From assembly GCF_030013595.1 (NCBI RefSeq), contig NZ_CP122768.1: DNA of 64,000 bases. One strand, given 5' to 3'. The notes below the pieces were generated by a model. The model did no database searches. It was not told where the DNA came from and saw only the letters and a list, made by a program, of their open reading frames with translations. Every line of letters begins with the position of its first letter. Position 1 is the stretch's first letter. A program made the translations under genes and the position numbers. Origin of the DNA: Escherichia coli. GTDB lineage: Bacteria > Pseudomonadota > Gammaproteobacteria > Enterobacterales > Enterobacteriaceae. Positions 3,706 to 53,878 of this stretch are shown one piece after another.

Positions 3706-4295
3706 AGTGTATTCCTTATTGTTGCTTAGTTAGGGTAGTCACTATATTTGCGACTGAGCTGGTCGCTATTTTTAACCAGGCTGGAAAATTGAGTCAATAT
3801 ATCGAAAGCGGTAGTCGTGGGTGTAAGTATGTAATGATGATGCTGCACTGGTGTTGAATATTATTCACGCCAAATTTTCCTTATTGAGCTACGTCGTCGC
3901 AAGTGGCCTCAATGATTTTAGACCATTATCAGAGGTACGGGGCGGCGGGGAGAGATTTAGTGCTGTGGAATATCGTGGTGCTGATGAATATTTATATCCC
4001 GGATTGGCAGAGAAAAAGCTTTTTTCATGCACTATTTTTGCAAATATTTCTATATGGGGGGCGGTTTTGTTGCAGATTAATTCATAAAGAAATGCATTTG
4101 GGTGTTGGCTGGAAGAGACGCTGGTAGATTTTATTGAGCCAGGAGGGGCGGGGTAATGTGCTGTATCGATATGCTTTGGCAAATGCGTGTGCCGCAGATG
4201 GAGATGAAATGCCAATAAAAAAGCCTGAGTTCGATGAGGGACGAACTCAGGCTATTGTTAAGTTTTACAGTAACACGCCGCGGCGCGTTGGCTGA

Positions 4296-5483
4296 TTAGA
4301 ACTGGTAGACTAAGCCCACAGCTACGATATCATCGGTAGCGATGCCGTTTTCTTTGTAGAAGTCGTCGTCGTTGTCCAGCAGGTTGATTTTGTAATCAAC
4401 GTAGGTGGACATGTTTTTGTTGAAGTAGTAGGTCATACCAATATCAACATATTTAACCAGATCTTTGTTGGTGTAATGATGATTGCCCTGGCTGTCGAAG
4501 TTATCACTATTTACACCGCCTAAATCCTTACCTTTAGATTGCAGGTAAGCGATGGACGGGCGCAGACCGAAGTCGAACTGATACTGAGCAACCACTTCAA
4601 AGTTTTGGGTTTTGTTAGCGATCGCATCAGCATCACCGTAACCAGTCATGTTACGGGTTTCAGCATACATAGCTGCTAAGTAAACGTTATTAGCGTCGTA
4701 TTTAGCACCAACGGTCCATGCTTCTGCTGTTTCACCGCCAGCAGTTGCATCGAAGCGATCTCCATAACGAGTGTTATGAGTACCTTTGTGAACCTGATTG
4801 TCGGTACGGTCAGAGTTAGAGTAAGCAGCGCCCAGACTTAAACCAAAGTCAAAGTCATAGGAAGTGGACATACCGAAGCCGTCGCCGTTCTCTTTAGCTA
4901 ACTTACGGCCATTACCGTTACCAGAACCTTCCTGACCGAATAATCCATCATCTTCATTATTACCCTGATATTGCAGAGCAAAGTTCAGGCCATCGACCTG
5001 GCCAAAGAAGCCATTGTTACGGTAGGTTGCAACACCATTAGCACGACCGTTCATGAAGTTGTCGGCACCAGCATAGGTATCGCCACCAAATTCTGGCAGC
5101 ATATCGGTCCATGCTTCGATGTCATATACGACACCGTAGTTACGACCATAGTCGAAAGTACCATTCTGACCAAAGCCTAAACCTGCAAATGCCAGACGCG
5201 TTGCGGTATTACCTTTGTCGCTTTCAGGACCGTTTGCGCCAATGTTAAATTCCCACTGACCATAACCAGTGAATTGGTCAGCGATCTGAGTTTCACCTTT
5301 GAAACCGATACGGGCATATGACATGTCGCCATCGCTGCCAGCATCATCAGAGAAGTAGTGCAGGCCCGCTACTTTTCCGTACAAATCCAGTTTATTACCA
5401 TCTTTATTATAGACTTCAGCCGCATTTGCTGCGCCAGCAACTAATAACGCCGGGACCAGCATTGCCAGAACTTTTCTTTTCAT
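4296..5483 (-). CDS. yedS: OmpC/OmpN-family general porin, intact (yedS-like; yedS is a pseudogene in K-12)
   Basis: Signal peptide [21 protein letters not shown], porin beta-barrel with C-terminal ...GLVYQF; start trimmed from the 5513 ORF. Confidence 0.8.
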
Positions 5484-48992: not shown

Positions 48993-51214
48993 GCTGTTTG
49001 CTCCTGTGCTGCGGTGAGGGCGGTGAGGCGTTCGGTTTTGATTTCATTCAAACGGCGCAGGCGCGAACCAAGATAAGTTGAATACTCCTTATCACCTTTG
49101 GATTCTGCGGCCTTGCGGTGAACTTCTACTTCCCGCGCAATAAGGCCATAGACTTTATTAACTTCATTGGGGGTTACGGCTGCAGCCAGTGTTTTGGCAA
49201 CACCTGAGAGTCGTTCATCCAGTTCTTCACGCAGTCGGGTAGCATCCTCTGCTTTCTCGCTTGCCTTCTTAATACTGTATTCTGTATTCAGCTCGGCGGT
49301 GTAGGCACTATCGTTATGCATATCCATATAAACATCTGCCGCAAATCCCAGATGAGATAGTGCTTTGACGGTGGCATCAGTAAGAGACTTTTTGGAGGCC
49401 TCTTTTTCCATTACCAGTGCCCCTTTGTTATTTTTTGATATGTAATCCGTGTGGCCATATGACGGAATAAATCCTTTCACTCCGTTCCAGATGTACCAGA
49501 GATCTATCCGGATGGTGTGTACTGACAGGCAGAACAGGGAACCGTCAGCATCCCTGACAGGTTTTTGTCCAATAATTTTCCCTGTCTGATCCTGTATAGG
49601 TTCAAGTAATGGCACACCGCGATCCACTCGCTCCTCCTTGATTTCAACTCCCCAACCAATGCCTTCCATTCCCAGCACTTCAGTCGCACGCATCAAAATA
49701 TATTGTGCGCGTATGGAGTGCAGTCCTGCACCGTAATCATTATGTGTGACATACGCAGGATCGGTCCGCTGAACGCGATTCCAGATAGCCAAATTTGCTT
49801 TGCTCTGGTCATCATTCATTGCTGACAGATAATGCTCCATGCGAATTGATGCAGTTTTTTCCTCGGCATGGGGCGGCTCAACCAGCGCGTCAACGTTCTG
49901 CACCAGGTCTTTTACCTGCTCGCTAAGTTTTTCTTGTGGAGGAGTCTCTTCTGCCGGGGTAATAGCTGCAGGTTCCCTCTGTGATACGGCGTTATTTTCA
50001 GGTACGTCATACACATGGCGAGGCGTGACAAACTGCTCACGCAACTGCTGCAAACTACGTTCTCCAGCATTTGCTGCTTCGCTTTTTTCGCCCTGATTTG
50101 AGGGTGTTTCTGACATCATTCCATCAATTGAGAATCGCCCGCCGCCGTGGTTGGTGACTTTTACATCATCCTTTGGTGCTGTTTCCTTTGGCTTCTCTTC
50201 AACAGCATTTGCATCACGCTGCCCGTTAGCTTGCAGCCAGTTGTCGATGTGACTGCGCAGGGATTGCGGGAAGTGGTACGTGTCTTTTGCGGGGGCGCTC
50301 TGAATAACACCGAATACTGATGCGCGGTCATAGGCAAGGATCTGATCCGTTGTGCGCAAGGCCATTGACCAGCGTTTAAAATCCTCCCGATCCTGGCTGA
50401 TTATTTCGTCTGCCGCTTTCAGGACGCTGGGGGTGATTTTTTCCGGGCCAACGGGTAACAGGGCGCAGGCAATTTCACGATCCAGTGTGGCGTGAGTCTG
50501 TTGGTAAGGACGTGCGGATGCTGTTTCTGGTTTTACCTCCGGCAGCATTTCATCGCGTTTACCGGGATTCTCTACCCATTTTTTTATAAATTTGGAGATA
50601 GTCCAACTGGTCGGGTTTTGTTCCTGGGTATCGCAACTTGCCAAAATTGCATGTACCAGATTATTCAATCCAGCAATATGCATGTACTCGATGGGCTTAC
50701 ACGCCACCATGGCATCAAGAACGATGCGGTTAAACGCGTCAACCTCATCCTCACTGTCAGTATCACTGTTGTCGAGCATCTCCAGGTATTCACGCGTCTG
50801 CGCAAGCAATTCACTGTCGACTTCGTTGGCGTCGTGGCTGAACAGCAGGACGGCGGCGAAGCGTTCACGAGCCGGCAGTTTCATCAGGTCGTTAACCTGT
50901 GCGATATCTGCTGAACCGCTATCTGAATCAGCGGGGGTGTTAACTACCCATTTTTCGCCATCAAAACTGTGTTCTGTGGCAAACGTCTCATCAAACTCAC
51001 CGACGCCAGGGCGCGGTTGGCCCGGGGCATCTTCCCAGATTTTAGGTTTGAAATAGTTGTCGCCGTGGTCAGGGTAGGCTTCCCACAATTTGCCGATGAT
51101 GATGTTCTCGGCAACTTTTTTGTTAGGGGCGTCGATGGCGATGGCCAGCGCCGGGATCGCGCCGTTTTTGAGCGCGCCTTTTTTCGCTTCTAACAAGCCG
51201 TTAAAGATGGTCAT
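48989..51214 (-). CDS. large phage recombination-module protein: ~470-aa acidic N-terminal region fused to an ERF/Sak(Rad52-like) single-strand-annealing-like C-terminal domain
   Basis: C-terminal segment ...LFCLSVHTIRIDLWYIWNGVKGFIPSYGHTDYISKNNKGALVMEKEASKKSLTDATVKALSHLGFAADVY resembles ERF/Sak cores; operon partner is Gp157. Confidence 0.4.
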   Translation of the reverse strand: MTIFNGLLEAKKGALKNGAIPALAIAIDAPNKKVAENIIIGKLWEAYPDHGDNYFKPKIWEDAPGQPRPGVGEFDETFATEHSFDGEKWVVNTPADSDSGSADIAQVNDLMKLPARERFAAVLLFSHDANEVDSELLAQTREYLEMLDNSDTDSEDEVDAFNRIVLDAMVACKPIEYMHIAGLNNLVHAILASCDTQEQNPTSWTISKFIKKWVENPGKRDEMLPEVKPETASARPYQQTHATLDREIACALLPVGPEKITPSVLKAADEIISQDREDFKRWSMALRTTDQILAYDRASVFGVIQSAPAKDTYHFPQSLRSHIDNWLQANGQRDANAVEEKPKETAPKDDVKVTNHGGGRFSIDGMMSETPSNQGEKSEAANAGERSLQQLREQFVTPRHVYDVPENNAVSQREPAAITPAEETPPQEKLSEQVKDLVQNVDALVEPPHAEEKTASIRMEHYLSAMNDDQSKANLAIWNRVQRTDPAYVTHNDYGAGLHSIRAQYILMRATEVLGMEGIGWGVEIKEERVDRGVPLLEPIQDQTGKIIGQKPVRDADGSLFCLSVHTIRIDLWYIWNGVKGFIPSYGHTDYISKNNKGALVMEKEASKKSLTDATVKALSHLGFAADVYMDMHNDSAYTAELNTEYSIKKASEKAEDATRLREELDERLSGVAKTLAAAVTPNEVNKVYGLIAREVEVHRKAAESKGDKEYSTYLGSRLRRLNEIKTERLTALTAAQEQTA

Positions 51215-51244
51215 TGGTCTTTCCTCATTACAGGTCAGTGGTCT

Positions 51245-51565
51245 TTAGTAGGGGATTTCATCAGTATCTGGCGTGTATTCGATGCAAAGTAACTGCTGGA
51301 TTTTGTCATCGATAGCAGCAATACGCTGTTGGGCGTCGGCGACTGTTTTCTGTTTTTGCTCATACAGCTGCTCGACCTGCAAACCGATGATGTCGATTGG
51401 CTGGGGCTGGTTGACGGTAATTTCAATTTCGCGGCTTTCCAGAAGGATGTACCTGTCTGGAAAATTTTTTGACATATCAACAGTCGCAACAAGCAGCTTT
51501 TCGTGGCTGAAAGTTGAAGTTGCATAATTAATAAAGAGTGTTACTGGGATGGTGCGCGCTTCCAT
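51245..51565 (-). CDS. hypothetical phage protein
   Basis: 106-aa ORF with SD aaggag 7 nt upstream, first gene after the leader. Confidence 0.4.
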   Translation of the reverse strand: MEARTIPVTLFINYATSTFSHEKLLVATVDMSKNFPDRYILLESREIEITVNQPQPIDIIGLQVEQLYEQKQKTVADAQQRIAAIDDKIQQLLCIEYTPDTDEIPY

Positions 51566-52413
51566 AGCGACTCCTTGGTGATGTATACTCGGGACCGATC
51601 AGCGAATATTGATCAGCTTCCATAGCGTCAGTGTCGTTGGTCTTTCCTCATCACAAGTTTGGTCACTTGTGATAAATCCGAATGGTTTGGTCGCCGTTCG
51701 GGGTAACTGGCCCGCCTTGTGCGGGTCTTTTGCTATCTAAAGGGTGCCGGTTACGTTTCCGGCGTCGTTATGTTTCCATCACGACCGTACGGGGCTGGTC
51801 TTTCCTGTTTTGAGCTGGTCAGGCTCATGGTCAACGCTGGTCAGGCGTGGTACTTCCTCCGGTCTTTCCCTGGTGTCACGCTGCGGGTTTGGCCTCTCCT
51901 GTTGGGGACTCAGGCACAGCGATAAAACCTGGCTGTGTGAAAAAATGGCCCATCGTGCGGACTGGGCAAAGGCTAAACACAGCAAATTGATGATGGGCGC
52001 CCGGAATCGAACCGGGTAACGGGCAGGGAGTTCCCGTTAAACACCTGTTCACCACAACCGGGAGCGCACTCCGCCATTTCAAAATTTAACGACAAAGCTC
52101 AAAGTTGAGTCGATGAAGTGCGCTCTCGTGTTGTAGCCAGGACTCTTCCCTGGTGGTCACACCGTATCGCCTTGATGGTGAATCAATCGCTCATACCTGG
52201 CTGTGGCTTGCACATTCCGGCTAGCTGCTATGGAGACAACGCGTTAAGGCTCCGCTTCCATCCAGACCGCTTCGACACATGTGCCATATGCCGGCGAAGT
52301 CTTTCCCTCTGTCATCGTGTTGGCGCCGACGCGCAAAATTTGATGCCGTCTTTCCGGCTGTCAGAACGTGTTTCTGAACAACTGCCGCTGGGTAAGCGTT
52401 GTTGATGAAAGTG

Positions 52414-52442
52414 ACTTTACAATTTGTATTTGTAATGGTCAA
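52414..52442 (-). promoter_or_regulatory. candidate PL-like leftward promoter (minus strand TTGACC-17 nt-TAAAGT) overlapped by palindromic operator TACAATTTGTA (52418..52428)
   Basis: Hexamers and palindrome read on the minus strand about 120 bp beyond the 3' end of the repressor gene, facing the leader and recombination genes. Confidence 0.35.
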
Positions 52443-52561
52443 CGTATTTTTAAAAAATAATTTGTAGTTAGGGGCAAAAAAATATTCACTGTGTAAAGGT
52501 GTTTTTGTGTTAGGGGGAAAGTTGCATGCCAGCAGCGGCTGGCCTGGAAATTTGAACTGAA

Positions 52562-52990
52562 CTATTTTGTCTGGTTTTTGGCTTCAAGTAGTTCTTTTAG
52601 CAGTAGATCGAAGTGCTCTCTTTTTTCTTTTAGCTCATTGATTAATTTATTTTTTTCGCTCTCAGGCAGTCCTCTGAATAGTTGCAGTAGAGCCTGTTCT
52701 TGCGGGGTTAGTTCTTGATTGTAATTACCCGGGTGTAGCGTGGATTCATCCAAATATTCACCTTCATTCATGAAGAAAAAATGAACAGGGTATCCGGTCA
52801 CTTTTGCTAGCTTGTCTAATTTATCTTTTCTTGGAGTTACCCCATTACACCATGCCTGAACTGATTGAGCCGTAACCCCAATATGGCGAGCTAACTCAGA
52901 TTGAGACCAGCCTAAGTCTTTTAGAATCCGTTGTAGTCGGCTAGCAAAAGCCATGTTTTTCGTTTTTGTGTTCATACCGTAAGGATACAA
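52562..52990 (-). CDS. cI-like prophage repressor (XRE-family HTH, no S24 peptidase domain)
   Basis: HTH WSQSELARHIGVTAQSVQAWCNG; divergent from the cro-like gene. Confidence 0.7.
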   Translation of the reverse strand: MYPYGMNTKTKNMAFASRLQRILKDLGWSQSELARHIGVTAQSVQAWCNGVTPRKDKLDKLAKVTGYPVHFFFMNEGEYLDESTLHPGNYNQELTPQEQALLQLFRGLPESEKNKLINELKEKREHFDLLLKELLEAKNQTK

Positions 52991-53839: not shown

Positions 53840-53878
53840 GCGCCTGACCAGCGTTTAACTTATACCGAGGAAAGACCG

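Follow-up and report, generated by a model that had tools for sequence, protein, structure and literature searches.

A doubly pseudoknotted RNA in the leftward early leader of an Escherichia coli prophage and its possible role in put-like antitermination

What is encoded by about one kilobase (kb) of DNA, poor in open reading frames (ORFs), that separates the repressor gene of a prophage from its early genes? Such a region lies at positions 51566-52561 of the 64,000 nucleotide (nt) stretch of E. coli contig NZ_CP122768.1 (assembly GCF_030013595.1) analysed here, referred to below as the window. The region is transcribed from the minus strand and forms the first ~840 nt, all untranslated, of the leftward early (PL) transcript, which is under repressor control; this leader is a chain of conserved RNA modules. 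The most conserved of these, at 52135-52295 and termed the core, was missing from the original prediction for this locus. Comparative analysis places it in an unannotated, doubly pseudoknotted RNA family of ~160 nt that is widespread in temperate enterobacterial phages. The reading that we favour, if tentatively, is that the core may serve as a put-like, cis-acting antitermination RNA.

The core consists of five helices and two pseudoknots on the minus strand. A covariance model (R1) built from 36 diverse core copies has a sole match in the window, at 129.4 bits (E = 1.4e-38), and gives 101 matches of 111–158 bits in other loci. The fold starts with helix P1 (52293-52289 with 52277-52273, CGGCR/YGYCG), which closes an invariant 11 nt loop, UAUGGCACAUG. 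Part of this loop (52284-52279) is predicted to pair with AUGUGC at 52215-52210 to form the first pseudoknot, PK1, which is unproven because it is invariant. A long variable hairpin, P2, occupies about 52265-52225 and is followed by the 17-mer TAGCCGGAATGTGCAAG (52223-52207); this 17-mer was the search seed, and its invariance in that homologue set arises by construction. P3 is a further, variable helix of the core. P4 (52186-52183 with 52175-52172) presents the loop UUCACCA here and YUCACCA across the family, the CACC of which (52180-52177) pairs with GGUG at 52163-52160 in the second pseudoknot, PK2. The final helix, P5 (52153-52149 with 52141-52137), has the form CCNNG-GAAGAGW-CNNGG, the loop being GAAGAGU in the window.

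Support for this fold comes from 91 distinct core sequences, in which 96.5% of cells are standard pairs and twelve pairs show changes on both sides. The covariation score is 0.288, compared with 0.126 for column shuffles (none of 500 reaching 0.288) and 0.02–0.06 for slid partners. PK2, which lies outside the model, changes from C-G to A-U (AACC:GGUU) in 15 of 84 sequences with zero mispairs. A nested long helix proposed by RNAalifold in place of P1 and PK1 was rejected, as covariation favours the P1 hairpin. Many of the unpaired bases never vary. The RNA is assigned to the minus strand because G-U pairs, which are abundant in the helices, are so frequent when it is read in this direction. Protein coding was also rejected: the internal ORFs have no match in PHROG, and the lengths of core copies differ by non-multiples of three. 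In mEp460, Tyrion and JL22 the core is covered by annotated ORFs, but these run in variable frames or on the opposite strand, and these hypothetical proteins (mEp460 gp37, opposite strand, L178 3456-3824; Tyrion gp54, in locus L007; and one in phage JL22) are very likely spurious calls.

A blastn comparison with phage genomes found only positions 52122-52293 of the window conserved in otherwise unrelated phages. Homologues were collected with the invariant 17-mer, which retrieved more than 120 viral contigs, and with a 5′ pattern in species-representative genomes. The latter gave 26 true matches. Of these, 25 are from Enterobacterales and the other is on a short, probably mis-binned contig that bears the label Bacillota; in total the homologues exceed 150. 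The remaining matches to the 5′ pattern were dismissed as chance, those outside the enterobacteria (Novosphingobium, Nocardia and others) scoring at most 20 bits with R1. The core is present in 1832 of 5426 complete E. coli genomes, at up to four copies per genome, with 554 copies borne on plasmids, and in 80 GenBank phage records. It is at least 95% identical in hundreds of genomes and 70–80% identical across genera. The core and a gene order typical of enterobacterial prophages are also found in a record named 'Stenotrophomonas phage vB_SmeS_BUCT708' (L001, OM816834), which is 71% identical to the window over the whole leader, and in a 'Bacillota MAG' (L172); the stated host of the former and the bin of the latter are doubtful.

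The genomic settings of the core differ widely. About 90 of 157 loci, a tally that includes 31 unclassified loci of which few were inspected, show a lambdoid layout in which a cI-type repressor gene, the core and the early-left genes follow one another on one strand, with several immunity types represented; carriers include mEp460 and the cdtI, Stx2c and Stx2a_WGPS2 phages. About 49 loci are epsilon15-like (phiV10, SPN1S, Tyrion and PAT1), the core belonging to a leftward RNA cassette that has the terminase gene on one side and the portal gene on the other; tRNA-Arg(UCU) often comes next after the core. In a further 14 or so (P1, P7, D6, RCS47 and SJ46) it is found between tRNA-Ile2 and ban, within the C1-controlled ban operon, and it also occurs in the lysis region of SopranoGao. 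A transfer RNA (tRNA) gene is directly adjacent to the core in 44 of 132 loci, 10–100 nt away and always on the same strand. One locus (L029) has two same-strand cores, at 4805-4959 and 3998-4154 on the minus strand, ~650 nt apart with an opposite-strand ORF of 166 amino acids (aa) between them. The P1 record names a 'dicF-like region' (P1 68791-68892; L177 282-383) at the head of the same ban operon, and the P1 early operon may likewise be a string of modules resembling host small RNAs (sRNAs).

The core family appears to be undescribed, as judged from the annotation of HK639 (see below) and from model searches. When the window was scanned against Rfam 15 with cmscan, no family overlapped the core body at E ≤ 10; a chance-level Zeta-pan match (52259-52360, 17.5 bits, E = 7.8) touches its 5′ end only. 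The core copies of P1, mEp460, SPN1S and SJ46 match no Rfam family at threshold, and the opposite strand of mEp460 gives a CC0196 match no better than chance. At permissive thresholds these four phages and the window yielded chance-level matches except for one to the 3′ half of the sRNA RprA, considered below. None of the records examined has an RNA annotated over the core; a few carry a hypothetical protein or a ribosome-binding site there. Literature searches on the sequence, on P1 trnI-ban RNAs, on RprA-like prophage RNAs and on put-like elements found no description of the core, the list of put-like RNAs that King et al. 2011 (J Bacteriol 193:5784) reportedly provide lying outside their coverage.

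The region as a whole is assigned to the PL leader, and to the minus strand, because of the placement of the promoter and operators and because conservation among relatives begins after the −10 hexamer. Its upstream border is a helix–turn–helix repressor gene (52562-52990, minus strand), adjoined on its downstream side by the promoter and operator-like repeats (52414-52467, minus strand). A promoter scan placed the sigma-70 promoter, TTGACC-17-TAAAGT, at 52442-52414, overlapped by three operator-like ATTTGTA repeats (52421-52467). The motif WATTTGTAD has four matches in the 64-kb window, all flanking the repressor gene; the fourth copy falls in the divergent promoter region across that gene, and divergent Cro-like and CII-like genes are found on its far side. 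Transcription would start near 52406, and the first ORF starts at 51565, ~840 nt from the promoter. This ORF (51245-51565, minus strand, 106 aa), the first leftward early gene, is of unknown function (PHROG 'unknown'), and the second early-left gene encodes a 741 aa exonuclease (PHROG 'exonuclease'). Nine related prophages have different promoter and operator sequences, and in their alignment conservation starts directly after the −10 hexamer.

The original prediction had described a leader, poor in ORFs and highly structured, that separates the immunity region from the recombination genes. The position agrees with the arrangement above, and the poverty in ORFs is borne out: none of the longest mechanical ORFs (95, 91 and 73 aa) has a match among the PHROG families, and no coding sequence or RNA is annotated by NCBI in the near-identical E. 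coli prophage copies examined. A near-identical copy of the region is carried by 479 E. coli genomes. The structural claim holds in part. Folding energy supports it only weakly (z-scores against shuffled sequence of −1.35 for 52300-52050 and −2.57 for 52050-51566), and the short repeats taken alone are within chance expectation, but three of the repeats that had been pointed out are conserved helices with compensatory changes. The real features are told by comparison and not by energy. All of the sequence features that had been quoted are present, at positions shifted by 2–7 nt.

The core is proposed to be put-like because it occupies the same position as putL, shares local identity with it, and is followed by the same downstream modules. 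The put RNA of HK022 and HK639, made just after PL, binds the β′ zinc-binding domain and makes RNA polymerase resistant to termination without protein factors; the CAUG bulge of putL, with U28, binds this domain and is essential (PMC9378689). In the window the order is PL (52442-52414), core (52295-52135) and terminator (51967-51940). The layout of mEp460 is the same: in both cases a PL-type promoter is found 45–110 nt upstream of the core, and terminator hairpins come after it. Between PL and the first gene mEp460 has a 10 base pair (bp) stem with UCUUUUU and a second long hairpin, and locus L091 has a bidirectional terminator. The record of HK639 carries the annotation 'putL-like antiterminator RNA' in the same position. 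The putL sequences of HK022 and HK639 read CGGCG-N11-CAUG-CGUCG-G and the core reads CGGCR-N7-CAUG-YGYCG, the same 14 bases occurring in the same order in P1 as in putL, with a pattern that was derived after the sequences had been seen. The module directly after putL in three loci (L219, L184 and L299) is the one that follows the core and its stem in three others (L007, L061 and L152), at 88–94% identity, and the closing stems of the exchanged modules differ by compensatory changes. The core 17-mer is found in none of 120 putL loci.

A lambda-type nutL site, one of the possibilities raised in the original prediction, would comprise a boxA resembling CGCUCUUA, a boxB and a downstream N gene, and such a site is not supported. 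The first early-left genes of core-bearing lambdoid phages include no N-like protein, and P5 resembles boxB only loosely. The boxA consensus is absent within 1 kb downstream of the core in all loci but one, and from the minus strand of the window leader. The broader suggestion of an antitermination leader survives as the best functional guess, by way of an RNA element that had not been noticed. Readings of the core or the stem as an RfaH ops element or an rrn boxA were discarded as partial matches made by eye, canonical boxA being essentially absent near the core.

According to the put-like proposal, the core would fold on the nascent transcript soon after initiation and act in cis on the transcribing RNA polymerase, conferring resistance to termination as do the put RNAs of HK022 and HK639. 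The P1 hairpin (CGGCR / CAUG / YGYCG) would be the counterpart of the lower helix of putL stem I and of the CAUG bulge at the β′ zinc-binding domain. The modified polymerase would pass the intrinsic terminator at 51967-51940 and would probably resist Rho over the long untranslated stretch leading to the 106 aa ORF and the exonuclease gene. In every case the core is either the first element of a long untranslated RNA array or an internal part of one, tRNA genes being among the components, and transcripts of this kind would be exposed to Rho. With slightly less than even confidence, we infer that the core represents a new RNA class whose partner is a central machine of the host, RNA polymerase being the most plausible. 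It could be an expanded, pseudoknotted relative of put or a functional analogue, used by many unrelated temperate phages (P1, Stx2, mEp460-type and epsilon15-like) to drive transcription through long untranslated arrays into early genes.

A number of observations weigh against an antitermination role of this kind. By every global test the core is placed outside the put family: R1 has no match in HK022 or HK639, blastn finds no similarity, and the architecture is unlike that of put, which has two stems and ~70 nt where the core has five helices, two pseudoknots and about 160 nt. The put stem II signature is not found in the leader, and G35, which is essential in put, has no conserved counterpart, P1 being followed by A, C, U or two bases. 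The CAU of CAUG is predicted to be paired in PK1, so that there may be no free bulge. Terminators within 300 nt downstream stand at 51% compared with 24%, with redundant loci and a crude detector that missed the window's own terminator, and this enrichment is suggestive only. In P1 the core lies ~2.3 kb into the ban operon, directly before ban and with no terminator after it, and in the small leftward RNA cassette of the epsilon15-like phages the promoter match is weak; in both settings the need for antitermination is less evident. Two tandem cores, as in the one locus described above, are needless for a persistent modification of polymerase. Finally, the perfect ~18 bp stem after the core, which resembles an RNase III site, and the flanking tRNAs would fit a free, processed RNA equally well.

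That last point leads to the main rival explanation, in which the core works in trans, as a free-standing and stable non-coding RNA that engages a conserved component of the host, and is excised by RNase III at the ~18 bp stem and by RNase P or other tRNA-processing enzymes at the tRNAs. We regard this as possible but on balance unlikely. The core sequence stays the same through unrelated settings of transcription, namely the lambdoid PL leader, the ban operon of P1, the epsilon15-like cassette and the SopranoGao lysis region; the cargo downstream of the core varies, it is bracketed by the long perfectly paired stem and by genuine tRNAs, and its many invariant unpaired bases are as expected of a binding surface. 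No phage protein is evidently common to the carriers, which suggests a host partner. Against this explanation, no partner or target emerged. A trans-acting RNA would also leave the likeness to putL and the positional swap with it unexplained, and the core is always co-oriented with and upstream of more RNA or genes, never an isolated promoter-to-terminator unit. Evidence of processing fails to separate the two models, since put RNA is active without a tether as well (PMC9378689). The size, double pseudoknot and invariant unpaired nucleotides of the core recall those of ribozymes, and it may be imagined as a device for processing or stability, either a self-cleaving ribozyme or a 5′ cap-like fold that would define ends and protect downstream tRNAs, ban mRNA or early mRNAs once the array has been cut. 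Same-strand tRNA genes adjoin it at 10–100 nt in a third of loci, and in P1 it comes directly after tRNA-Ile2 and before ban. This explanation is nevertheless improbable: the core matches no known ribozyme family in Rfam, no cleavage site can be inferred, and 17 or more consecutive invariant bases are needless in a simple protective structure.

Control of the terminator by a riboswitch-type sensor of a ligand or of uncharged tRNA, in which the P4 loop UUCACCA would mimic the 3′ end of a tRNA and pair with GGUG, is less probable again. A complex, conserved, pseudoknotted fold in a 5′ leader with a terminator ahead has the general appearance of such a sensor, P1 and the extended nested helix are mutually exclusive, and neighbouring phage tRNAs end in CACCA. 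However, the sequence after P5 depends on context and contains no conserved expression platform, the nearest terminator is 150–400 nt away beyond other modules (and is lacking after the core in P1), and no riboswitch family matches. The explanation that we hold least credible is that the region is decayed DNA without present function, composed of dead genes and the relic of an attachment site or tRNA. A T-arm-like fragment without a cloverleaf, orphan GGAAAGACC motifs that resemble ribosome-binding sites but have no ORFs, and varying repeat numbers in the distal leader might be so interpreted. Against it, compensatory changes maintain helices across phage families, the core is conserved within and across genera to the extent given above, and the T-arm piece matches no E. 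coli tRNA; for 52295-52055 decay is already contradicted.

Between the promoter and the core, the 5′ leader (52296-52406, minus strand) contains four short hairpins that can be read from the sequence (CAACAAC/GTTGTT, TCAGAA/TTCTGA, GCCG-gaaaga-CGGC and GCGC-gtcg-GCGC) and is conserved in relatives L001, L044 and L135. The core is almost always followed by the long stem module (52055-52133, minus strand), which here pairs CAAC..GAGAGCGCACUUC (52133-52114) with GGAGUGCGCUC..GUUG (52072-52055). The 9 bp long-range pairing GAGCGCACT/AGTGCGCTC that had been noticed earlier is confirmed at 52063-52071 and 52118-52126, and is the base of this ~18 bp stem. The general form of the module is CAACGAUGAGAGCAUUNN / NNAGUGCUCUCAGCGUUG(UGG); up to 18 of 18 positions are paired over 50 sequence variants, with full compensation in variants such as L011 and L175, and 52–400 nt are enclosed. 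The distance from the core to GTTGTGG, or to the long stem, is at most 250 nt in 114 of 157 loci. From its sequence the module looks like a substrate of RNase III.

The stem is succeeded by a closed tRNA-like module (51988-52055, minus strand), in which GUGGUGA (52055-52049) pairs with UCAUCA (51993-51988) around an inner hairpin (52038-52018) and a T-arm-like hairpin, CCCGG-UUCGAUU-CCGGG (52016-52000). The minus-strand sequence CCGGTTCGATTCCGGGCGCCCA, compared in the original prediction to a T-arm with an acceptor 3′ strand, is present at 52015-51994 and not at 52001-52022. The view that no full cloverleaf can be drawn is upheld: ARAGORN calls only three host tRNAs in the window, at 46.3–46.7 kb, with no call in this module, and the sole tRNA-type match in Rfam is to tRNA-Sec (19 bits, E = 1.9). 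When 52062-51985 was compared by blastn with 5426 E. coli genomes, it matched this prophage leader only, in 447 genomes, and no E. coli tRNA gene; strains SE11 and EC958 are among the carriers of this prophage. The T-arm module is lineage-specific, its place being taken by another hairpin in sister leaders. ARAGORN, Rfam and blastn rule out identification of the T-arm piece as a tRNA, transfer-messenger RNA (tmRNA) or Y-RNA; it is neither a tRNA nor a relic of an E. coli tRNA but part of a closed, lineage-specific module, and the suggested scar of an older attachment site is not borne out. Hairpins with T-loops, and even acceptor-like stems ending in ACCA, are found in equivalent modules of other arrays. 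Modules of ~170 nt downstream (L152 and L299, after GUUGUGG; L007 and L219) have a 9 bp acceptor-like closing stem with an ACCA end, and beside its 3′ strand a canonical T-arm, GCUGG-UUCGACU-CCAGC, with no ARAGORN call. These RNAs resemble tRNA or the tRNA-like domain of tmRNA, and occur behind putL too.

The terminator that follows (51940-51987, minus strand) resembles the 3′ half of RprA, an Hfq-dependent sRNA of E. coli. It consists of single-stranded UUGCUGUGUUUAGCCUUU (51985-51968), a hairpin (51967-51948) and a run of six U residues (51945-51940). An intrinsic-terminator scan reported a minus-strand stem at 51962-51948 followed by CATTTTTT, and the full hairpin at 51967-51948 reads GCCCAgtccgcacgaTGGGC; the G+C-rich hairpin and U-run of an intrinsic terminator are thus both present on the transcribed strand at 51967-51940. 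In relatives the stem changes in a compensatory manner while the U-run and UGCUGUGUGUAGUCUU are kept. The Rfam model of RprA (RF00034) gives 34 bits (E = 0.15) compared with a gathering score of 70, its 3′ half being aligned almost base for base. The last ~50 nt are nearly identical to K-12 rprA, with UUGCUGUGUKUAGYCUUUGCCCA..CACGAUGGGC and a U-run in common, whereas the 5′ half is missing from the phage module, which is embedded in the leader and is not a separate gene. As judged from this alignment the module is homologous to the 3′ half of the host sRNA. The earlier idea of a phage sRNA is right to this extent, although what is present is part of a leader and only half of the RNA. Early transcription of the phage could thus give rise to a 3′ fragment like that of RprA, or to an RNA that competes for Hfq or for the targets of RprA. 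The module is seen also in L099, L016, L018 and L001.

The distal leader (51566-51939, minus strand) was described from the nine-relative alignment. The copy number of its GGAAAGACC and CUGACCAGC repeats varies among relatives through insertions and deletions. A covarying hairpin with a conserved GACCAA loop (51673-51650) contains the 9 bp inverted repeat ATCACAAGT/ACTTGTGAT, which was correctly recognized earlier but lies at 51650-51658 and 51665-51673 and not at 51648-51671; in relatives its stem is wholly replaced by compensating sequences. A second conserved hairpin of the minus-strand leader (51727-51709) also has compensatory changes and has a T-run on the plus strand. The terminator-like hairpin reported on that strand is indeed present, at 51709-51727 and followed by TTTT. 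On the plus strand this hairpin (51709-51731) would stop transcripts that run antisense to the early-left operon. The same strand has a TATACT at about 51584-51589, ~120 nt upstream of the hairpin, that is conserved; no promoter passed the scan. Together they could represent an oop-like antisense RNA or an insulator.

At the end of the leader a small upstream ORF of 31 aa (51528-51623, minus strand) overlaps the start of the 106 aa ORF. In BUCT708 (L001) it is annotated as 37 aa, at 4085-4198 on the minus strand, and relatives provide it with a good ribosome-binding site, GAGGAAAGACCAATG. The window has ACG in place of this ATG and uses another ATG further downstream. The motif GGRAAGAS has 16 matches compared with 5.2 expected, and the 8-mer GGAAAGAC is clustered in early operons, with copies at 51217, 51640, 51798, 51862, 52299 and 52348 on the minus strand and at 53869 and 56599 on the plus strand. 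Some of these are the ribosome-binding sites of real genes, and four in the leader have no ORF behind them. With CUGACCAGC these copies make up repeats that differ in number among relatives. A CsrA sponge was considered for these repeats and rejected, as the motif is the usual context of ribosome-binding sites in this phage and precedes start codons at 51214 and 53879.

Whatever its mechanism, the core is a covariation-backed fold that P1 and about one in three complete E. coli genomes carry and that is absent from Rfam 15 and from the annotations examined, which makes it a ready target for structural and genetic work. It was missed in some of the best-studied phage genomes, and once it is recognized, the spurious ORF calls that cover it can be corrected. 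The leader has the look of an 'RNA array' with exchangeable parts: tRNA-like modules, a homologue of the 3′ half of RprA and stems of the RNase III type, and points to an under-studied area of phage–host RNA biology. To our knowledge, processive antitermination by RNA only is known from essentially one family, put, with a single solved structure. If the put-like proposal is true, the core would be a second and far more widespread antitermination RNA, related or analogous to put, that would extend the diversity of RNA folds that reprogramme RNA polymerase and would explain early gene expression in lambdoid phages that lack N, Shiga-toxin phages among them. If the core acts otherwise than on polymerase, it may be new in kind.

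Among known systems, the lambda nut/N and rrn boxB-boxA-boxC elements are comparable to the core in position, since it stands where the leftward early transcript begins. There is a loose likeness between P5 (CCNNG-GAAGAGW-CNNGG) and the loop of lambda nutL boxB, which we take to be GAAGA, and another between AGUGCUCUUUCCGUUGUGG, on the 3′ side of the stem module, and what we take to be boxA and boxC; unlike boxA, however, the boxA-like stretch is paired in the stem. The large ornate RNAs GOLLD and ROOL, which neighbour tRNA genes in prophages, are both in Rfam. The core is much smaller, is restricted to Enterobacterales and has no Rfam match to either, but like them it is a phage-borne structured RNA of unknown function that is often found beside same-strand tRNA genes. 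Compared with put (HK022 putL and putR and the putL-like RNA of HK639), the core is without stem II (GGCGGG..CGGCAAU) as well as the essential G35, its P1 loop is predicted to pair with a 3′ segment whereas the put loop pairs with a 5′ segment, and it is not confined to lambdoid early operons, being present as well in the epsilon15-like cassette and in the ban operon of P1. No copy of the core is found in the rightward operon of the window, and the single left-operon site corresponds to that of HK639 as annotated. In lambdoid phages both lie just after PL, with no N there and with terminators next, and the core, like put, would act in cis. Both begin with a hairpin in which CAUG stands immediately 5′ of the 3′ strand of a five base pair helix (CGGCG:CGUCG in put), and the same leader modules can be found downstream of either putL or the core.

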